A DNA stretch of 10,644 nt, taken from the NCBI GenBank assembly GCA_037133055.1, contig JBAXOY010000102.1, forward strand, positions 1-10,644, read 5' to 3'. Shown here one piece after another: positions 1 to 10,644 of this stretch. Below the pieces are notes generated by a model. That model saw only the letters and a list, made by a program, of their open reading frames with translations. It had not been told where the DNA came from and did not search any database. Source of the DNA: Chlamydiota bacterium (GTDB taxonomy: Bacteria > Auribacterota > Tritonobacteria > UBA1439). The position numbers and the translations under genes are program-made. Within the stretch, counting starts at the first letter, position 1, and each line of letters opens with the position of its first letter.

Positions 1-180
1 AACCGCATCGCCTTCGGCCTGGTCGTGGCGGCCCTCATCATCGGCTCCTCGGTCGTGACCCTGAGCGACCGGGGGCCGCGCCTGCTCGGGGTTCCGCTCC
101 TCGGCCTCGCCGGGTTCGTGCTCACGGGGCTCCTGGGGCTCCGGCTCATCTTCGGCATCATGCGCTCGGGGAAGCTCTGA
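1..180 (+). CDS. 3' end of AarF/UbiB (ABC1) atypical kinase family protein, partial: C-terminal membrane hairpin only
   Basis: Frame 1 reads NRIAFGLVVAALIIGSSVVTLSDRGPRLLGVPLLGLAGFVLTGLLGLRLIFGIMRSGKL*, stop TGA 178-180. Two hydrophobic helices with NR..F.L..AALIIGSS...GP...G.P.LG..GF and a terminal RSG.L match the C-terminus I recognise in bacterial AarF/UbiB proteins. The kinase domain lies outside the window. Confidence 0.75.
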   Translation, partial: NRIAFGLVVAALIIGSSVVTLSDRGPRLLGVPLLGLAGFVLTGLLGLRLIFGIMRSGKL

Positions 181-264: not shown

Positions 265-1134
265 ATGCGGACCATCGCGAAAGCCGACATCGTGGCGCAC
301 GGGATATGCGCCGCGGGCGTGGCGCTCTGCGTTATCGCGCTCGCGCGCAGCTTCGGGCGGCCCGCGTGGGGGTTCCTGGCGGTCGCGGCGCTCGCCCTGT
401 ATGCCGCGGGAGCGCTGCGGCGGCCGTTCAGGAGGATGCGGCTCGCGCGGGAGGAGTTTCCCGCGGCATGGCGGGAGGTTCTTCTCCGGGACGTCCGGTT
501 TTACCGCGGGCTTGACAGGGCGGGGCGCGCCCGTTTCGAGCGCGACCTGCGCTGGTTCCTCGGCGAGCACGCGATCGAGGGCGTGGACGGGGTGCGCGTC
601 ACCGGCGAGCTCCGGGCGCTCATCGCGGCGGGGGCGGCGGTCCTCCTGCACGGGCAGCCGGAATGGGAGCTGCCGCGCGGGCACACGATCCTCGTGTACC
701 CGGGGAGCTTCGACGAGGAGTTCAGGTGCGCGCCCCGCGGGCCGTTCGACGGCCAGGCGCACGGGCAGGGGCCGGTCATCGTGGCCCGGGACGCGGTTCG
801 GACGGGGTGGCGGAACCCCCCGGACGCAGGCAACGTCGCGCTCCACGAATTCGCGCACCTGATGGACATGAAGAGCGGCGGGCCGAACGGCGTGCCGAGG
901 ATGCTCGCGCGGGCCGCCGTGGGCGAGTGGCTCGCCCTGATCCGCGCGGAGATGGAGAAGGTGGAAAAGGGCCAGTCGCTGCTCCGCCCGTACGCCGCTG
1001 AGAACGAGGCGGAGTTTTTCGCGGTGGCGGTGGAGTATTTCTTCGGGCAGCCGCGCCTGCTCCGGGCGCGGCACCCGGAACTGTACGGGGCGCTCGCCCG
1101 GTTCTTCAACCAGGATCCGGCGTTGAAGCAATGA
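265..1134 (+). CDS. M90 family (MtfA-like) zinc-dependent peptidase with N-terminal transmembrane helices, 289 aa
   Basis: HExxH motif NVALHEFAHLMD (HEFAH at 844-858), plus LRPYAAENEAEFFAVAVEYFF and HPELY..L..FFNQDP, typical of M90/MtfA. FP.AW and ILVYP.SF also fit the family. Two hydrophobic segments at about aa 9-51. SD is weak (AGGCGG 251-256), so the start is less certain. Confidence 0.9.
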   Translation: MRTIAKADIVAHGICAAGVALCVIALARSFGRPAWGFLAVAALALYAAGALRRPFRRMRLAREEFPAAWREVLLRDVRFYRGLDRAGRARFERDLRWFLGEHAIEGVDGVRVTGELRALIAAGAAVLLHGQPEWELPRGHTILVYPGSFDEEFRCAPRGPFDGQAHGQGPVIVARDAVRTGWRNPPDAGNVALHEFAHLMDMKSGGPNGVPRMLARAAVGEWLALIRAEMEKVEKGQSLLRPYAAENEAEFFAVAVEYFFGQPRLLRARHPELYGALARFFNQDPALKQ

Positions 1135-1156: not shown

Positions 1157-2503
1157 ATGACACGCAGATCGATTCTTTCACTGGCGCTCGTCGCCGTTCT
1201 CCGCGGAAGCCTCGCCGCGGCCCCCGGGGACCGCGAGGCGCGTATCAACGACGTGATGAAGCGGGTGGCCGAGTGGGCGCGCGTGCGGGAGGAGATCACG
1301 CTCGCAAGCTACCGGGGGCAGCGGACGGAGCTCCGCGAGAAGCTCGGGAAGATGGAGGCGGACCTCGCGCGCGACAACGTCGACTACCGGAGCTTCCTGG
1401 GGATACAGAGCCACTGCGAGGACATCCAGGGCACATTCTTCTTCGACGGCGCCTGGGTGGAGAACACCATCTACTGGCGGTTCCTGCGCGTCTTCAACTT
1501 CCCCCGCCACCTGGGAAGGATGGTCGGAAGGCCCCGCCAAGCCTCCGACCTGACCGCCTCGGGGGGCGTCCCCGACTCCGCCCTCTTCTTCAACAGCGAC
1601 ATCGCCTCGTTCACTCCGGAGTCGCTCGCCGCCGAGGACGCGCTCATCCGGCCCCGGGGGAAGATCACGATCACCGGGAAGAAGGGTGAGGGGAAGTCGG
1701 AGGGCTTTTACGGCAAGGACGAGCGCGGGACCGAGTATATCGTCATCGTCGACCCGCCGAAGATGGAGGAGCAGGAGACCGCCGCGGAGGTTGTCGGCTC
1801 CACGCTCGTCCGCATGGCGGGCTACAACATCGCCACGAGCGCCATCATCACCATCTCCGGGACCGGGAACCCCGAGTTCGACGGGCGGCGAGCGGTCGCG
1901 ACGAAGCTCGTCGAGGGGTACAAGGGCCACTGGTCCTACCGGGACTTCGGCTCCCGCAGGGAGATGCGGGCGACCATGCTCTTCGGCGGATGGATACACA
2001 ACACCGACTGGGTGGACCACAATACCGGCATCAGCGTGACCAGGACGGAGGGCATCCCGCTCACGCGCTACTTCATCTTCGACTTCGGCGGCTCGCTCGG
2101 CTCCTGGAACGTCCGGACCAAGGAGCCGCGGGACGGATGGGAGTACTACGTGGACTTCGGGGAGTTTTTCCTCTGGCCGGCGCTGAGGCCGCTCGATCTC
2201 ATGGGGCTCAGGCACAAGCCCTGGAGCGCCGACGGGGCCCAGTTCAGCGAGGCGGTCGGCTATCTCGACAGCAACTTCCCTCCCGACCGGTACCGCTCCA
2301 ACTACCCGAACATGGCGTGGGCGGAGATGACCCGCGAGGACGCCCTCTGGGCGGCGAACCTGATGGCGAAATACACCGACGCGCAGGTGCGGGCGGCGGT
2401 GGACCTCGCGCGGTACAGCCGGCCCGAGGACGCCGACTATGTCTTCCGCACCCTCATGGAGCGCCGGAAGAGGATCCTGGACTTCTACGGCGTGAAGCCG
2501 TGA
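1157..2503 (+). CDS. Exported uncharacterised protein with atypical kinase-like fold (HipA/PI3K/CotH-like motif order), 448 aa
   Basis: SD-like GGAGAAAGG at 1141-1149. N-terminus MTRRSILSLALVAVLRGSLAA resembles a signal peptide with a twin-Arg-like TRRSIL. Motifs in kinase order: GKKGEGKSEGF (aa 174-184), YIVIVDPP, AAEV (E211), HNTDWVDHN (D284-x4-N289), YFIFDFGGSLG (DFG 309-311), then a helical C-lobe. The CDS is solid; the fold is inferred. Confidence 0.75.
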   Translation: MTRRSILSLALVAVLRGSLAAAPGDREARINDVMKRVAEWARVREEITLASYRGQRTELREKLGKMEADLARDNVDYRSFLGIQSHCEDIQGTFFFDGAWVENTIYWRFLRVFNFPRHLGRMVGRPRQASDLTASGGVPDSALFFNSDIASFTPESLAAEDALIRPRGKITITGKKGEGKSEGFYGKDERGTEYIVIVDPPKMEEQETAAEVVGSTLVRMAGYNIATSAIITISGTGNPEFDGRRAVATKLVEGYKGHWSYRDFGSRREMRATMLFGGWIHNTDWVDHNTGISVTRTEGIPLTRYFIFDFGGSLGSWNVRTKEPRDGWEYYVDFGEFFLWPALRPLDLMGLRHKPWSADGAQFSEAVGYLDSNFPPDRYRSNYPNMAWAEMTREDALWAANLMAKYTDAQVRAAVDLARYSRPEDADYVFRTLMERRKRILDFYGVKP

Positions 2504-2540
2504 TCCCCCGCCTGAACAGTCAACCCGGAACCGCACCCGC

Positions 2541-5500
2541 ATGAGCCTCTCGCTTGAGAAGGTCCTCAAGGTCCGCCGGCCGGAGCAGCCGCTGCTCCTT
2601 CTGATGATCGGAACCATCGCCCTCTTCCAGTTCTGCCAGATCATCAACGAGAACTTCTCCGAGACGGTCTTCCTGAAGCGCTACGGTGTCTCCTACCTCC
2701 CCACGACCTATTTCCTGAACTCGCTCGTCTTCCTCGCCCTGCTCTTCGCCCTGAACCCCGTCGTGGACCGCACGGCGCGGACCCGCCTGGTCTCGCACCT
2801 CCTCCTCATCTTCGCGGGGACGCTCGTGTGCCTCCGCCTCCTCGTCGCCTCCGGGATCACGCTCGCGTACCCGGTCACCTACATCGTCGTCAAGCAGATG
2901 AAGTACGTCTTCTACATCGTATTCTGGACGCTCGCCAGCGATATCTACTCCACTCGGAAGGCGCGTCGCCTCTTCCCGCTCATCGGGGGCGGCGCGGTCC
3001 TCGGGACCATTGCGGGGAGCCTGTCGAGCGGCTGGGTCCGGGGGCTCACCGGGACGGACAACGTGGTCCTCTTCTCGAGCGCCGGGATGCTCGTCTCGTG
3101 GGTCCTGATCGGGCTGGGAAAGCGGCAGGTGAACCGCCTCTCCCCGGTGACCTTCTCCCCATCCGAGTCCGTGACGATCGCCTCGCTGGGGAAGTTCGTC
3201 AGGCGCGAGGTTTTCGGGCAGAAGGGCGGGTCGCTGCTCAACTACCTGATGCTCCTCGCCCTTCTCCCCGGGATCGTCGGCCCGATCTACGAGTATGTAT
3301 TCAACTACCTCGCCGACAAGACCTACCACACCGAGGCCTCGCTCTTCGGCTTCTTCGGCCTCTTCAAGGGGTCGTTCAACATACTCATCCTGGCGTGCCA
3401 GATCCTCATCGCGGGCAGCGCGTTCCGGCGCTACGGGATCGTCAATGTCCTTTTCGCCTACCCGGCCGGGTACCTGTTCGCCTTCGGGAGCCTCCTCGCG
3501 AGCTTCCGCATGTCCGCGGCGGCGGCGGGGCGGACGGGTATCGAGGTGATCGACGCCGCGTTCTACAAGCCCGGCTGCCAGATGCTCTACAACATCATCC
3601 CCGCGCAGCTCCGCGGCAGGGTGAGCGCCCTCGTGCAGGGCGCGGTGCGGAGGATCGGCGAGCTCGCGGGGAGCGGGCTCCTCCTGGTCATGAAGATCTA
3701 CCTGTCGCCGCTTCACCTCAACCTGGTCGGGCCCGCGTTCGCGCTGGTGTGGCTCTACTGCACCTGGCGGCTCCGCCGCTCCTACTCCGCGATACTCTAC
3801 CGCAGCTTGAGCGAGAAGCACGTGAACTTCGCCGAGCTCGAGGGCCGCGACCTTCGCTCGCTCATGTCGGCCCAGGCCCGCGCGGCGCTGGAGAAGAACC
3901 TCGCCGCCGAGCAGCCCGCGACCGCCCTCATGGCGGCCCGCCTCCTCAGCCAGTCCGGAATCGCGGGGTGGCCCGCCCTCGTCTGTGCGCATCTCTCCCG
4001 CCTTCCGCCCGAGGCGCAGGTGGAAATCCTGCGCGTGGCGGCGACGGGCCCGCGGGGCGAGGTCGCGCGGGCGCTCCTCGGGGCGGCGGGCGGCGTGCAC
4101 CCGTCGATCCTGCCCGAGCTCGCCGCCGTCCTGCGGCGCACGGCCCCGCACGAGGGGGCGGCGCTCTTCAGGAAATGGCGCGGAGCCGCGGACACGCGCC
4201 TCGCCGCGGAGGCGCTCCTCGGCCTCCAGGCGGCGGGCGAGAAGGTGGACGGGGAATGGGCCCTCCGGCGGCTCGGCTCCCCGAACCCCGGGGAGGCGGC
4301 GAGCGCGGTCTATTTCCTCGGCGAGACGGGGTGCGGCGGGTGTCTCGAGCGTGTCATCGGGCTCGCGGACTCGAAGGACCCCTCCGTCAGGGCCGCCTGC
4401 GCGAGGGCGCTCGGGAAGCTCGGCCTGCCCCTCTCCTCGGCCCGCTGGCACATGCTCCTCGGCGATCCTGAGCCCCGCGTGCGCCTGAAGGCCCTCGAGG
4501 GGCTCGCGGCGCTGGAGGACCAAGAGGCGGTGCGGAGCGCGGTCCCGGCTCTCGGCGACGAGGACGCGGGGGTGCGCGAGGCGGCACAGGCGCTCATCGA
4601 GGGCCACGGCGAGGCGGCGATACCGCTCCTTACCGAGGCGCTGCCGGGGGCGGGGCTCTTCACGAGGGCGGTCCTCATCAGGATACTCGACGACCTCGGC
4701 GTCAAGGAGCAGACGCTCCTCGCGTTCATCGACGCGAAGGTGGAGGAGGGGTACCGCGCCGTCGTGATGATGCGCTGCGCGGAGGAGATCCCGCCCGGGA
4801 GGTCGCGCGAGGTTCTGTCGCTCCTCTGCCGCAATCGCCTGAGCGAGGCGACCTACGAGATATTCAGGGCGCTGGGGCTTCTCCTGAAGGGCGGGCAGGT
4901 GCAGTTCATCCAGGAGAACTACCACGACCGCGAGGAATCGGTCAGGGAGCAGGCGCTCGAGGCGCTCGAGAACGTCCTCACGCCGGAGATCGCGCGGAAG
5001 CTCCTGCCGCTGCTGGAGGACCTGCCGCTCGATCTGAAACTCGCGGCGGGGGCGAAGCACTACCGGCTCGAGTCGTCGAGCCTCGGCGGCGCGCTCGGCG
5101 ACATGCTGGATTCGCCGCACGGCGCCGACGCGCTCTGCGGTCTCATGTGCATCGGAGAGGCGTGCCGGAGGGGGAAGCCGCCGGTCGGGGCGGAGCTCCG
5201 CGGCCGGGCGGAGGCGCGCATCGCGGCATTGAACATCCAGGGAGGGAAGGCCGTGGAAGACCTGATGGAGAAGGTGCTGACGCTCAAGGGGGTGCCGATC
5301 TTTGCGCACCTCCAGTTCAAGGAACTGCTCGCCATCGCCTCGATCTCGCGCGAGGAGGCGTTCGACCCCGGCGACATCATCATCCGCCAGGGCGAGCGCG
5401 GCTACACGATGTACCTCATCATCTCGGGGAGGGTGCGCATCCTCTCCCGCGCGGAGGATGACAGCGAGGAGGTCCAGCTCGCGACCCTGATGGAGAACGA

Positions 5501-5696
5501 CTACTTCGGCGAGATGGCCCTCTTCGACGACTCGCCGCGCTCGGCCACCGCGGTCGCCGAGGGGCGGGTCGCGGCCCTGAAGATCGACAAGCGCGAGTTC
5601 CGCGACATGCTGCGGGAGTACCCCGGCGTTTCGATCATGATGTGCGAGGAGTTCTGCCGCCGCCTCCGCCGCACCATCGAGAAGGTCAGCGTCTAG
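2541..5696 (+). CDS. NTT (Npt1/Npt2, TLC ATP/ADP translocase-like) nucleotide transporter fused to HEAT repeats and a C-terminal cyclic-nucleotide-binding domain, 1051 aa
   Basis: aa ~1-420 are polytopic, with the NTT-type motif FWTLASDIYSTRKARRLFPLIGGGAVLGTIAGS. aa ~440-830 hold HEAT-like repeats (DSKDPSVRAACARALGKL, DPEPRVRLKALEGL, DEDAGVREAAQAL, REESVREQALEALEN). aa ~905-1051 form a cNMP domain (LKGVPIF, IIRQGERG..MYLIISGRV, FGEMALFDDSPRSATAVA at 5505-5549) with no CRP-type HTH. Stop TAG 5694-5696. Confidence 0.88.
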   Translation: MSLSLEKVLKVRRPEQPLLLLMIGTIALFQFCQIINENFSETVFLKRYGVSYLPTTYFLNSLVFLALLFALNPVVDRTARTRLVSHLLLIFAGTLVCLRLLVASGITLAYPVTYIVVKQMKYVFYIVFWTLASDIYSTRKARRLFPLIGGGAVLGTIAGSLSSGWVRGLTGTDNVVLFSSAGMLVSWVLIGLGKRQVNRLSPVTFSPSESVTIASLGKFVRREVFGQKGGSLLNYLMLLALLPGIVGPIYEYVFNYLADKTYHTEASLFGFFGLFKGSFNILILACQILIAGSAFRRYGIVNVLFAYPAGYLFAFGSLLASFRMSAAAAGRTGIEVIDAAFYKPGCQMLYNIIPAQLRGRVSALVQGAVRRIGELAGSGLLLVMKIYLSPLHLNLVGPAFALVWLYCTWRLRRSYSAILYRSLSEKHVNFAELEGRDLRSLMSAQARAALEKNLAAEQPATALMAARLLSQSGIAGWPALVCAHLSRLPPEAQVEILRVAATGPRGEVARALLGAAGGVHPSILPELAAVLRRTAPHEGAALFRKWRGAADTRLAAEALLGLQAAGEKVDGEWALRRLGSPNPGEAASAVYFLGETGCGGCLERVIGLADSKDPSVRAACARALGKLGLPLSSARWHMLLGDPEPRVRLKALEGLAALEDQEAVRSAVPALGDEDAGVREAAQALIEGHGEAAIPLLTEALPGAGLFTRAVLIRILDDLGVKEQTLLAFIDAKVEEGYRAVVMMRCAEEIPPGRSREVLSLLCRNRLSEATYEIFRALGLLLKGGQVQFIQENYHDREESVREQALEALENVLTPEIARKLLPLLEDLPLDLKLAAGAKHYRLESSSLGGALGDMLDSPHGADALCGLMCIGEACRRGKPPVGAELRGRAEARIAALNIQGGKAVEDLMEKVLTLKGVPIFAHLQFKELLAIASISREEAFDPGDIIIRQGERGYTMYLIISGRVRILSRAEDDSEEVQLATLMENDYFGEMALFDDSPRSATAVAEGRVAALKIDKREFRDMLREYPGVSIMMCEEFCRRLRRTIEKVSV

Positions 5697-5733: not shown

Positions 5734-7290
5734 TTACTGGACGATAAGCGTCTCCCGGTCGACGGTCCCGACGTACTGCCCGGTCGCCGCGTCGATCGCG
5801 CCGCCCTCGAGATAGTAGACCCCCGTCGCGATTCCCCTGAACTGCGTGTCAAGGATCGGATAGTCCCATATCGGCGCCGCCACGGTGGTGGTCCCGGGGA
5901 AGCCGAGATACGGCGTCGGCGAAGCCATGAACCCCACCCCCCGCTCGTAGTAGAGCGTCTGCCCGTTCGGCATGACGATCCGCACGAACAGGTAGCACGG
6001 AGTGGAGATGACGGATATGTTCGCCCTCACCGCGATCCAGTCGGTCGTGAAAAACGTCGTCTTGTTCGCCGTCAGGTCGACCGGGGGCGCCGGTGGGACG
6101 GCATACGAGTAGACGACGCCCATATCCTCCGGCCCGCCCGCCAGCGTCGCGCCGTACAGCGTGCCGTTCGAGAGGAGAAGCGTCCCTGTCGGGAATGATC
6201 CGGTGCCCTCGATGAGGCCGTCGAAGCGGTAGAGCTTGGTGTAGCCGGTGCCGTCGGTGTTGAGCGTGAAGATGGCGCCCGCGTCCATGCCCGCGATCCC
6301 GTTGAGGGCGTTTACCCTGCCCCCGGAAGACGTGGTGCCATAGAGCCTGGTGCCGTCCCTTGTCAGGCCGGTGCAGAAGAGGTTATTGTTCAACCTCTTG
6401 CTGCCCTGAGGCTCCGCGGCGGTGTCGAGAGAGAAGTCGTGCAGGGTCTGGAAATTGGCCCCATTCTTGTCGACGGCGAAGATGGTTCCCCCGCCATAAC
6501 CGAAATATGCCCCGCCGTTCGCCCCGCCGGACAGCGTCAGCCCGTAGAGCCTGCTCCCGTCCGAGACGAGTCCGCCCACCGGCTGCGCGCCGTCAGGGCC
6601 GGAGAAGTCGTGCAGGATCGTGTGGGTGCTTCCGTCGGGCGACATGGAGAAAAGGGTCCCGGCTTCCGAGAGGTAACTCCCGCCCCACGAGGTCGCCCCG
6701 TACAGGGTCCCGTTTTCGAGGAGCAGGCCGCCCCAGGGAGAACTGCCGTCGAGCGGTGAGCCGGCGAAATTATAGGCGACGGTGTAGGCGCTGCCGTCGG
6801 TCTTGATGGAGTACGCAGTGCCGTCGCTGGTGGTCCCCCCAGCACTCGTCAATCCGTAGATCATGTCTCCGGACACCACCACAGGGCTCCTCTCCCCTGC
6901 GCCGGAATAACTCCACAGGAGGGCCGTGTAAGCGGTGCCGTCGGTCTTTATAGAATAGAGTGCCCCGAGCGAGTTATCTCTGGTCGTCCCGTACAGGACG
7001 CCGTTGCTCAGCGCGAGGCCGCCGTTCGTGTAGGTGTAGTCGGAAAAGCTGTTGAGGATCGTGAACCCGCTCCCGTCGAGGTTCATCGCGTAGAGGATAC
7101 CGGAGCTGTTCGCGCCGCCGTTGGTTGTGATCCCGTAGAGCTTGACGCCGTCGGATACCACTCCCCCGTCCGGATACTGGCCGTCCGTCGGACCGCCCGA
7201 AAAGTTGTGGAGCACCGTGTACGTCTGCGCGAAAGCGCCCGTCGCCGCAAGGCACAGCGCCAATGCCGCCAACGCAATCAGACCACGCAT
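5734..7290 (-). CDS. Secreted GloVer-type (TIGR03803-like) repeat protein, probable 7-bladed beta-propeller plus C-terminal beta domain; paralogue A, 518 aa
   Basis: Start moved from 7374 to ATG 7290, which follows SD GAGGGAGGGG and gives signal peptide MRGLIALAALALCLAATGAFA|QTY. Seven repeats of Y/F-T-x-L-H-x-F...DG..P.GGL...G..LYG.T..GG....G..Y/F....DG.G, then a PPAPP linker and a 115-aa C-terminal domain (5737-6081). Confidence 0.9.
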   Translation of the reverse strand: MRGLIALAALALCLAATGAFAQTYTVLHNFSGGPTDGQYPDGGVVSDGVKLYGITTNGGANSSGILYAMNLDGSGFTILNSFSDYTYTNGGLALSNGVLYGTTRDNSLGALYSIKTDGTAYTALLWSYSGAGERSPVVVSGDMIYGLTSAGGTTSDGTAYSIKTDGSAYTVAYNFAGSPLDGSSPWGGLLLENGTLYGATSWGGSYLSEAGTLFSMSPDGSTHTILHDFSGPDGAQPVGGLVSDGSRLYGLTLSGGANGGAYFGYGGGTIFAVDKNGANFQTLHDFSLDTAAEPQGSKRLNNNLFCTGLTRDGTRLYGTTSSGGRVNALNGIAGMDAGAIFTLNTDGTGYTKLYRFDGLIEGTGSFPTGTLLLSNGTLYGATLAGGPEDMGVVYSYAVPPAPPVDLTANKTTFFTTDWIAVRANISVISTPCYLFVRIVMPNGQTLYYERGVGFMASPTPYLGFPGTTTVAAPIWDYPILDTQFRGIATGVYYLEGGAIDAATGQYVGTVDRETLIVQ

Positions 7291-7498: not shown

Positions 7499-9070
7499 TT
7501 ACTCGACGATCAGGGTTTTTCTGTCGACGGTCCCGATGTACTGCCCGGTCGCCGCGTCGATCGCGCCGCCCTCGAGATAATACGTCCCGTCGTCGGCACT
7601 GAACGGCATGGTGAGGATCGGATAGTCCCATATCGGCGCCGTCACGGTGGTGGTCCCGGGGAAGCCGAGATACGGCGTCGGCGAAGCCCTGAGCCCCTTC
7701 CCCCGCTCGTAGTAGAGCGTCTGCCCGTCCGGCGTGACGATCCGCACGAACAGGTAGCACGAGGTGGTGATGACGGATATGTTCGCCCTGACCGCGATCC
7801 AGTCGTTCATGAAGAACGTGGACTTGTTCACCGCCAGATCGACCGGGGGCGCCGGCGGGACGGCATACGAGTAGACGACGCCCATATCCTCCGCCCCACC
7901 CAGCAGCGCCGCGCCGTACAGCGTGCCGTTCGCGAGGAGAAGCGTCCCCGTCGGGAACGATCCGGTGCCCTGGATTACGCCGTCAAAGCGGTAGAGCTCG
8001 GTGTAGCCGGTGCCGTCGGTGTTCAGCGCGAAGATGGTGCCCGGGTCCACGTCTCCGACAAGGGATCGCGCCGTTCCAAGTCCCATCAGGGTGAAGGTGG
8101 TGCCGTAAAGCGTGGTGCCGTCCATTGCCAGGCCGCTGCAGTAGAGGGATCTGAAGGGCCTCGTTTTTACGGGAGACGGCGCGGCGCCGGAATCGAATGT
8201 GCGCAGGGTCTGGAAGTTCGCTCCATCCTTGTCGACGGCAAAAACGGTTCCTCCCGTGGCGTACCCGTAATAGAACCCGCCAACGGACCCCGTCATGCCG
8301 TAGAGACGGCTCCCGTCCGAAACGAGTCCTCCCACCGGCTGCGCGCCGTCAGAGCCGGAGAATTCGTGGAGGTTCGTGTGGGTGGTCCCGCCGGGCGACA
8401 TGGAGAACAGGGTCCCCGCTTCCACGTAGTACTTCCCCCCCCGCGCGGTGGCGCCGTAGAGCATTCCGTCCTCGAGGAGCAGTTTTCCCCACGGGTAGGA
8501 GCCGTCGAGCGGCGAGCCCGCGAACGTGGTGACGACGGCGTAGCCGGTGCCGTCGGTCTTGATGGAGTACGCGATGCCGTCGCCACCAAGGGTATCCACT
8601 TCCTCGATCAATCCGTACATCATGTCTCCGGACACCACCACGGGGCTTTTCTCCCCCCATGCGTCAGGGGCGAAATTGCACAGGATCGCGTAACCGCTGC
8701 CGTCCGTCTTGATGGAATAGATCGTTCCCTCATCCGATGCCCCGCCCCCGCCGGTCGTCCCGTACAGGACGCCGTCGGCCAGCGCGAGGCCGCCGTTCGG
8801 GGACGTGCCGTCAGGCGCGGGGCCGAAGCCGTGGAGGATCGCGAAGCCGCTCCCGTCGAGGTTCATGGCGTAGATGGCACCCTCGTCATCCGCTCCTCCG
8901 TCGTAGGTGGTCCCGTAGAGCTTGGAGCCGTCGGACACCACTCCCCCTGTCGGTCTTCCGCCGTCCGCCGGCTCCCCCGCGAATTCGTGGAGCACCGTGT
9001 ACGTCTGCGCGGACGCGCCCGCCGCGAGGCAGAGTGCGAGCGCCGCCGTCACCGAGATGAACGTGCGCAT
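7499..9070 (-). CDS. Secreted GloVer-type repeat protein; paralogue B, 523 aa
   Basis: ATG 9070 follows SD AAGGGAGAG. Signal peptide MRTFISVTAALALCLAAGASA|QTY, seven LYG/MYG repeats, a PPAPP linker and a 114-aa C-terminal domain (7502-7843) closely similar to paralogue A. Confidence 0.9.
   Translation of the reverse strand: MRTFISVTAALALCLAAGASAQTYTVLHEFAGEPADGGRPTGGVVSDGSKLYGTTYDGGADDEGAIYAMNLDGSGFAILHGFGPAPDGTSPNGGLALADGVLYGTTGGGGASDEGTIYSIKTDGSGYAILCNFAPDAWGEKSPVVVSGDMMYGLIEEVDTLGGDGIAYSIKTDGTGYAVVTTFAGSPLDGSYPWGKLLLEDGMLYGATARGGKYYVEAGTLFSMSPGGTTHTNLHEFSGSDGAQPVGGLVSDGSRLYGMTGSVGGFYYGYATGGTVFAVDKDGANFQTLRTFDSGAAPSPVKTRPFRSLYCSGLAMDGTTLYGTTFTLMGLGTARSLVGDVDPGTIFALNTDGTGYTELYRFDGVIQGTGSFPTGTLLLANGTLYGAALLGGAEDMGVVYSYAVPPAPPVDLAVNKSTFFMNDWIAVRANISVITTSCYLFVRIVTPDGQTLYYERGKGLRASPTPYLGFPGTTTVTAPIWDYPILTMPFSADDGTYYLEGGAIDAATGQYIGTVDRKTLIVE
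8987..9034. repeat. 48-nt exact direct repeat, copy 1 (signal peptide/mature N-terminus of paralogue B)
   Basis: gtggagcaccgtgtacgtctgcgcggacgcgcccgccgcgaggcagag is identical to 10597-10644. Confidence 0.9.
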
Positions 9071-9120: not shown

Positions 9121-10644
9121 TTACCGTATCGTGGCGATACGCTGGACGCCGTAGCCCGCGATGGCCGCCTCGAGGCTCGGCGGCGAGCCGGCCGGGAGCA
9201 GGGCGACGATGACCGTGTACGCGCCCGCGGGCAGCCCCGTGGGCAGCGTCATGGAGAGGAGCTGCGCCGTGAACGCCGACGGGAGGCCGGGGACGTTACG
9301 CGCGAGCGGCGCGGCGCCGGGGATGAGGCGGCCCGGCTGGCCGAGGACCATCGAGTGGTACGTCCCGTCGGGACCCTGGATGACGGCCCACGCGTCGAAG
9401 CGCTGCGTGAGGGGCTGGACCGCGACGTCGATGGTCCAGAGGCTCCCCGCCGCGGGGAAGATGGTGCTCAGCGTCACCATGAGCGGCGGCGTCGGGATGA
9501 CGTACGAGAACACGACGCCCTCGCCGCCCGTCCCTCCTGCGTCCGTTATGCCGTACAGGGTGCCGTTCACGAGGAGGGGCGTCCCCATGGGATACGCGCC
9601 GGTGCCGCTGTAGAGGTTGTCGAACTGGCGGAGCGCGGTGTAGCCGGTCCCGTCGATGTTGAGGGTGAAGATGACGCCCCCGTTGAACAAGGCGCCGCTG
9701 CCGCCGTGCCCCGCGAAGCCGTAGAGCCGTTCCCCGTTCTGCACGACGTTGCCGGGCATGCCTCCGCTCGCGAAATCGAGATTGTACAGCGTCTGGAAAT
9801 CGGAACCGTCCTTATCGACGGCGAACACGGTCCCTCCGCCGTAGAAAAGAAGGCTGGTCGCGCTGCCGCCGACCGCCGTGGTGCCGTAGAGTCGGGAGCC
9901 GTCCGAGATGAGCGTGCTCGAAATCCCGGCGCCGTCCCCGAAGGAGAAGCTGTGCAGTATGCTCTGGCTGCTGCCGTCCGGGGCCAAGGAGAAGACGGTC
10001 CCATCGCCGGACAGGTACGCGCCCCCCTCGTCCGTCGTCCCGTAGAGCATACCGCCATCCAGGAGAAAGCCGGCCAGGGGATTCTCGCCGTCGGAGGGCG
10101 ACCCGGCGAAATTGTGAAACACCGTGTAGCCGGTCCCGTTGGTCTTGATCGAGAAGGCGGTGCCAAAGTAGTGCGGTAATGGGGCACCGTCCGAGAACGT
10201 GCCGCCTTCCTCGCACATGCCGTAGACCGTGTCGCTTGACATGGCGAGGGGCCCCACCGGCCTGGCGCCGTCCGGGGGGACATTGAAAGGGCGGGAATTG
10301 TACATGGTCCCGTCGGTCTTGATCCGGTAGATCGTCCCGAGGCCGAAAGCTCCCCCGCCGTACGTCGTGCCGTAAAGGATGTCCCCGTTCAACAGGGGGA
10401 GGCTGTTCGGGTTGGCGGCGGCGGCCGCATTGCCGAATTCGTGGAGGACCGTGTAGCCGCTCCCATCCATGTTCATGGAGTAGAGGATTCCCTTGTCGTT
10501 CACTCCGCCGTCGTCTGTGACCCCGTAGAGTCTGACGCCATCGGACACCACCCCCCCGACTGGATCGGACCCGTCCGTCGGCCCGCCGGCGAAGTTGTGG
10601 AGCACCGTGTACGTCTGCGCGGACGCGCCCGCCGCGAGGCAGAG
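9121..10644 (-). CDS. Secreted GloVer-type repeat protein; paralogue C, 5' end outside the window
   Basis: The frame is open to the window end and reads ...LCLAAGASA|QTYTVLHNFAGGPTDG..., so the GTG at 10605 in the ORF track is not the true start. Seven LYG/VYG repeats, a PTPP linker and a divergent 120-aa C-terminal domain (9124-9483). Stop TAA 9121-9123. Confidence 0.9.
   Translation of the reverse strand, partial: LCLAAGASAQTYTVLHNFAGGPTDGSDPVGGVVSDGVRLYGVTDDGGVNDKGILYSMNMDGSGYTVLHEFGNAAAAANPNSLPLLNGDILYGTTYGGGAFGLGTIYRIKTDGTMYNSRPFNVPPDGARPVGPLAMSSDTVYGMCEEGGTFSDGAPLPHYFGTAFSIKTNGTGYTVFHNFAGSPSDGENPLAGFLLDGGMLYGTTDEGGAYLSGDGTVFSLAPDGSSQSILHSFSFGDGAGISSTLISDGSRLYGTTAVGGSATSLLFYGGGTVFAVDKDGSDFQTLYNLDFASGGMPGNVVQNGERLYGFAGHGGSGALFNGGVIFTLNIDGTGYTALRQFDNLYSGTGAYPMGTPLLVNGTLYGITDAGGTGGEGVVFSYVIPTPPLMVTLSTIFPAAGSLWTIDVAVQPLTQRFDAWAVIQGPDGTYHSMVLGQPGRLIPGAAPLARNVPGLPSAFTAQLLSMTLPTGLPAGAYTVIVALLPAGSPPSLEAAIAGYGVQRIATIR
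10597..10644. repeat. 48-nt exact direct repeat, copy 2 (paralogue C; runs to the window end)
   Basis: Identical to 8987-9034 and may extend past the window. Confidence 0.9.

Follow-up and report, generated by a model that had tools for sequence, protein, structure and literature searches.

The window analysed here, a 10,644-nt stretch of DNA, constitutes an entire contig of its source genome (G000; 2.99 Mb, 92% complete) and encodes a kinase-fold protein with a signal-peptide-like start, followed by a multi-domain carrier of the NTT family, each present as one gene copy in G000 (Table 1). The two reading frames lie where the original prediction had placed them, co-oriented and separated by a 37-nt gap (2504-2540), and the carrier frame (2541-5696, 1051 aa) combines NTT, HEAT and cyclic-nucleotide-binding (cNBD) domains in one chain. 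Close homologues of both proteins bear the NCBI label Candidatus Aureabacteria, for which a fermentative, heterotrophic lifestyle has been inferred (PMC9324843).

Table 1. Annotated features of the window, with the evidence for each assignment
Feature	Position	Strand	Evidence
MtfA-like M90 zinc peptidase (HEFAH)	265..1134	+	Pfam; hydrophobic N-terminus
Putatively exported atypical kinase-fold protein, 448 aa	1157..2503	+	Export by crude rule; AlphaFold model
Sec-type signal-peptide-like segment, no lipobox	1157..1222	+	Crude hydropathy rule; cleavage after AAA by eye
NTT-family membrane domain, remodelled cavity	2541..3830	+	Profile matches
HEAT-repeat region of carrier	3831..5270 (bounds approximate)	+	Pfam matches, residues 600-701
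Cyclic-nucleotide-binding domain, intact FGEMAL...PRSATA cassette	5271..5696	+	Pfam PF00027
GloVer-repeat (TIGR03803) proteins, three tandem paralogues	5734-7290, 7499-9070, 9121-10644	-	

The M90 peptidase gene stands immediately 5′ of the kinase gene in 7/7 same-family genomes, in all of which the kinase and carrier genes are also adjacent (in one case across a contig break); since the peptidase is not a recurrent neighbour in other phyla, it is doubtful whether it belongs to the module. An ABC1/UbiB-type atypical kinase has its C-terminus encoded at window positions 1-180; over 59 aa this segment is 75% identical to a 559-aa ABC1 protein encoded upstream of the peptidase in G007, and an ABC1/UbiB-type neighbour is likewise present in G003, G004 and G005. 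The three GloVer-repeat paralogues are 46-67% identical, with signal-like starts on the first two and the third leaving the contig end; a C-terminal domain of ~120 aa common to paralogues 1 and 2 recurs at no fewer than 10 further sites in the genome.

The kinase-fold protein comprises signal-like residues 1-22, a helical hairpin (25-72) and a kinase core spanning about 160-446. Its start (MTRRSILSLALVAVLRGSLAAA) consists of a basic N-terminus, a hydrophobic stretch and an Ala-rich end, and neither a lipobox nor a later hydrophobic segment was found in the protein (maximum 19-residue hydropathy of 1.06). From this signal-like N-terminus we infer export, in line with the export signal originally proposed; such a start, called by a crude hydropathy rule rather than by SignalP, recurs in 155/181 kinase homologues versus 18/181 and 5/181 internal control segments. 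Pfam returns HipA_2 alone, below its cut-off (E 0.013, 15.2 bits versus 27), and gives no match to Fam20C, CotH or PI3_PI4_kinase at E values up to 1. The anticipated kinase-like fold is borne out by an AlphaFold model (pLDDT 94.4), which adopts a bilobed kinase fold and, compared with known structures, matches atypical kinases, its nearest folds being those of CtkA, PI4K, Fam20, CotH and HipA.

The kinase-order motifs described beforehand hold up in part. Assigned by motif order and secondary structure rather than by residue-level superposition, K176, E211, the catalytic D284-x4-N289 and the metal-binding D309-F-G are all retained, whereas the site of the β3 Lys, filled by Lys in 224/258 distant members, is I197 (strand 193-198); the β3 Lys/helix C Glu pairing is absent from the window kinase, with E211 present and K176 a possible substitute. 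Two family His residues also differ (N282 and Y305), and an Arg cluster (R245, R267, R268, R271 and R436) is almost invariant (243-257 of 258 kinase-family members), which suggests from sequence conservation that the acceptor may be anionic or already phosphorylated. Further variants were observed elsewhere in the family. The dead kinase copies L018:7980-9335 (from G008) and P0035, devoid of both catalytic Asp, are still full length. A subfamily of 1150 aa (P0180, P0183-P0197) lacks both Lys and mostly the catalytic Asp, with the kinase domain fused to a large C-terminal region that has no Pfam match, and P0156 fuses the kinase to a PAP2 phosphatase domain that matches PAP2 neighbours at other loci. 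The kinases of L151, L158-L162 and L164, which are barrel-linked or on short contigs, have Glu at the Lys positions and have lost some catalytic residues, and no NTT is present in the locus DNA examined.

In the carrier, Pfam identifies cNMP_binding (E 1.5e-23) and HEAT_2 (E 1.5e-16), with TLC (E 0.014, 14.7 bits versus a cut-off of 21) and TIGR00769 (13.6 versus 387) both falling below threshold. NTT membership, the remaining part of the domain composition first described, is accordingly assigned from profile matches and not from Pfam TLC: a 30-carrier profile built without the window family matches carrier residues 4-422 at E 2e-50, and with a 32-row profile that includes the window carrier, solved NTTs are recovered at E 1.8e-47 (9j3n) and E 1.1e-40 (9j3j). 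A family-only carrier profile gave no match in the PDB at E values up to 10. The membrane domain is 68-84% identical between genera, and is thus conserved, not decaying. Within its cavity (E37, S40, K118, K121, S362, Q366, R370, R371 and E374), E37, S40 and S362 occupy sites where other kinase-linked NTTs have K/R (42/43, 40/43 and 40/41, respectively) and where both solved carriers are basic too, and Q366 stands where Asp is found in 32/41; the basic residues K118, K121, R370 and R371 are new in the window carrier and invariant in 17/17 closest homologues. The carrier sits on a very long branch of the tree, separate from the usual kinase-linked NTTs, so its exact placement is unsure.

Mapped by manual count along the 32-row profile alignment to solved NTTs, residues K155, E245, E385 and K527 of AtNTT1, which are given as its ATP/ADP-exchange residues in PMC10654386, correspond to Y57, K118, E251 and E374, leaving one of the four, the acid at E385, in place. 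PMC3306366 reports that E245K nearly abolishes exchange by AtNTT1 and that K527E abolishes its binding of ATP. The same four residues differ in most other kinase-linked NTTs too, and therefore provide a weak yardstick for the window branch. Because basic cavity residues have been lost, and because PamNTT1, a characterised chlamydial NTT, strongly prefers ATP-in/ADP-out with negligible opposite exchange (PMC1951785), the comparison of sequences leans against the ATP/ADP carriage first proposed for the window carrier.

Loss of phosphate-binding basic residues from both proteins in the same lineage would also fit a catalytically retired signalling pair, in which a pseudokinase acts as a ligand sensor beside a transceptor or a cAMP-controlled non-nucleotide carrier. 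Fully dead kinases do exist in the class (P0035, and that of the sister-family genome G008, which has lost both catalytic Asp through D284G and D309N), and the carrier's broader subfamily, including most of its nearest outside relatives, lacks the TM1 basic pair. However, D284, N289, D309, E211 and K176 are kept in 25/25 closest homologues and, with the exception of the G008/P0035 branch, across the wider Lys-less clade, new invariant basic residues have been gained in the carrier's cavity helices, and the dead G008 kinase is no longer linked to NTT, the two genes lying on separate contigs in this single case. We consider retirement of the pair rather unlikely.

Across the phylum, a survey of 61 genomes detected the kinase in 9, with an NTT gene in 9/9 of these and in 4/52 of the others. 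Among 120 Acidobacteriota genomes drawn evenly (centre genome excluded; G131, which has weak partial matches, scored negative), a strong kinase match occurs in 22, with NTT in 19/22 of them versus 32/98 others and the two genes at most 10 kb apart in 6/22; these linkage counts cover related genomes and are not independent observations. Scanning named genomes with 14 kinases of the long form and retaining the best 80 of 582 matches gave 79 loci that are biased to the long-form kinase and derive mostly from Acidobacteriota, and also from Bacteroidota, Calditrichota, Zixibacteria, Latescibacterota and others. Within this set of the best 80 of 582 matches, an NTT gene is present in 33/79 loci (14/33 loci of at least 20 kb), and for the 46/79 without NTT in the locus DNA, 37/38 genomes checked have one elsewhere. 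The expected linkage to NTT genes thus proves conserved across phyla in this gene-neighbourhood survey; the pairing recurs with several carrier clades and far above chance, which argues against the two genes being merely co-regulated or inherited neighbours with no direct coupling. Such an absence of coupling, to which we assign a slim probability, would be compatible with the inheritance of the entire peptidase-kinase-carrier order within the family, with the window carrier and the usual partner falling in separate clades and with the 32/51 sampled NTT-bearing Acidobacteriota genomes that have no strong kinase match. This last count also tells against the broader suggestion that kinase fuelling accounts for NTT fusions in general.

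Two further NTT arrangements were noted. A second, single-domain NTT gene lies at G005:C2:15806-17143, G005 being the only family member showing one, and at L168-L172 (G014, G023, G031 and G039) a cNMP-domain gene lies directly upstream of an NTT-HEAT gene, in genomes that gave no kinase match.

The kinase's commonest partner in the family is an Omp85 barrel, which is absent beside the window kinase. Among the loci from the best 80 of 582 matches, a barrel gene of ~430 aa lies upstream of the kinase, or is fused to it, in 74/79; in four of the five exceptions the kinase starts <200 nt from the locus edge, and in the fifth no ORF of 200 aa was found in the 2.6 kb upstream. The partner barrel was not found in 9/9 class genomes searched, each of which yields a single Omp85 match that is weak and partial; its reading frame measures 763-848 aa (BamA-sized) in eight genomes and 525 aa in one. 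Of 50 metagenome loci, the barrel is present in 23; in another 9 it is missing and the gene immediately upstream of the kinase encodes an NTT-HEAT protein, and the remaining 18, most of which are short, have neither. These nine barrel-less pairs (some of them near-duplicates) keep the β3 Lys and the TM11 Lys; a split with full support places their kinases together with the window kinase on its short side, and their carriers fall in a different clade from the window carrier. Since barrel-less pairs occur with different carrier clades, the linkage of carrier to kinase does not depend on the barrel being present. Judging from these groupings, the pairing has apparently formed more than once, and we view the window pair as a stripped-down version, with two genes and no barrel, of a gene set that is widespread.

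CtkA, PI4K, Fam20, CotH and HipA are forward kinases, and the proximity of the predicted fold to theirs argues against energy harvest in the canonical direction, whereby ADP would leave the cell, be re-phosphorylated from an external phosphoanhydride (e.g. polyphosphate) and return as ATP. Such harvest would agree with the transport preference of PamNTT1, the Arg cluster could bind a polyanion and the usual barrel could let such a donor in; the window copy, however, lacks a barrel and its carrier is non-canonical, and the phosphatase genes neighbouring the kinase among the best 80 of 582 matches (metallophosphoesterase in 13/79 loci and PAP2 in 8/79) fit a writer/eraser cycle, making harvest improbable in our view. 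Low probability likewise attaches to trapping and uptake, in which the enzyme would phosphorylate a scavenged small molecule with available periplasmic ATP and the carrier would import the product. NTT substrates are varied, including NAD and purine nucleotides (PMC5381601), and the remodelled yet basic cavity suits another anion, but the ATP source is left unexplained and most kinase-linked carriers in other phyla share cavity residues with solved ATP/ADP carriers.

In a receptor search that covers PF00027 only and genomes that are incomplete, the carrier's cNBD is the sole match in G000, as is the case in 4/5 relatives, G005 having a second. Class III cyclases number three in G000, where their fusion partners are FHA-GAF, HAMP and CHASE2 domains, and one to three in each of its relatives; the G000 cyclases bear a K-[FY]-I-G-D motif, which we take to point to adenylyl cyclases. 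The sole PF00027 match and the presence of three cyclases lend support to the cyclic-nucleotide gating put forward in the original prediction, and the carrier is probably cAMP-controlled.

The reading we tentatively prefer is that cAMP gates the carrier, through which a nucleotide donor reaches a periplasmic phosphotransferase, the two proteins forming a trans-envelope phosphotransfer module. The kinase-fold protein, whose fold is predicted with high confidence, would be exported by Sec and lie free in the periplasm, and linkage suggests that an inner-membrane NTT-family carrier would supply a nucleotide as phosphoryl donor, ATP being the simplest candidate, and return the spent nucleotide. 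cAMP from the class III cyclases would bind the cytoplasmic cNBD, which would switch the carrier via the HEAT repeats and permit nucleotide exit on signal only. The kinase may employ K176 instead of the lost β3 Lys, and the basic residues of the carrier cavity may have shifted from TM1/TM11 to K118, K121, R370 and R371. The preference of PamNTT1 for ATP import is a real obstacle to the outward direction; outward transport would call for another kind of cavity, and the window carrier has one, yet the same changes fit a retired pair. Also weighing against this reading are the replaced β3 Lys, the carrier's long and separate branch, the 46/79 loci lacking NTT in the locus DNA and the small share (6/22) of kinase-positive Acidobacteriota genomes in which both genes lie within 10 kb. 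ATP/ADP specifically as substrate accounts for much of the credence we give to the module, and is by itself rather unlikely.

Among known systems, Fam20 secretory-pathway kinases work with a lumenal ATP supply; Fam20 is 8-11% identical to the window kinase, with no Pfam Fam20C match, and the window system differs in being bacterial and in that its carrier belongs to another family and is encoded by the adjacent gene. CtkA, CotH, HipA/HipT, PI4KII and MavQ show 10-15% identity to the window kinase and, to our knowledge, none has a dedicated nucleotide carrier. AtNTT1, CpNTT1 (PDB 9j3j, 9j3n) and PamNTT1 have a membrane domain homologous by profile to that of the window carrier; these are single-domain importers, whereas the window carrier is multi-domain. 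The same three-domain architecture as in the window carrier is found in the NTT-HEAT-cNBD fusions of non-parasitic bacteria, of unknown function, in which cAMP may adjust transport (Major, Embley and Williams 2017, PMC5381601); the main text of that work invokes no kinase, barrel or periplasmic role, and the window copy has a remodelled cavity. A literature search, with subscription journals and supplements outside its scope, found no description of such a module, which thus appears new against the literature searched, with a function predicted from sequence.

The periplasm is viewed as devoid of ATP-driven chemistry, and no function has been assigned to NTT-HEAT-cNBD fusions since they were described in 2017. 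For testing nucleotide export and periplasmic phosphorylation, the simplest form is offered by two genes, one for a soluble enzyme and one for a carrier with its own cAMP switch, and a comparison series is at hand, comprising intact barrel-less pairs, the rewired window pair and a naturally dead copy. More speculatively, periplasmic phosphorylation would be switched by cAMP in these bacteria, an NTT-family carrier exporting the donor for use by an exported kinase of Fam20/CtkA-like type; the irreducible part would be the carrier plus the kinase, and not the barrel, a pair assembled on at least two occasions with carriers of different clades. Here this pair would be where the cell's cAMP signalling chiefly leads, and both partners would have been re-engineered, possibly to use a non-ATP donor.
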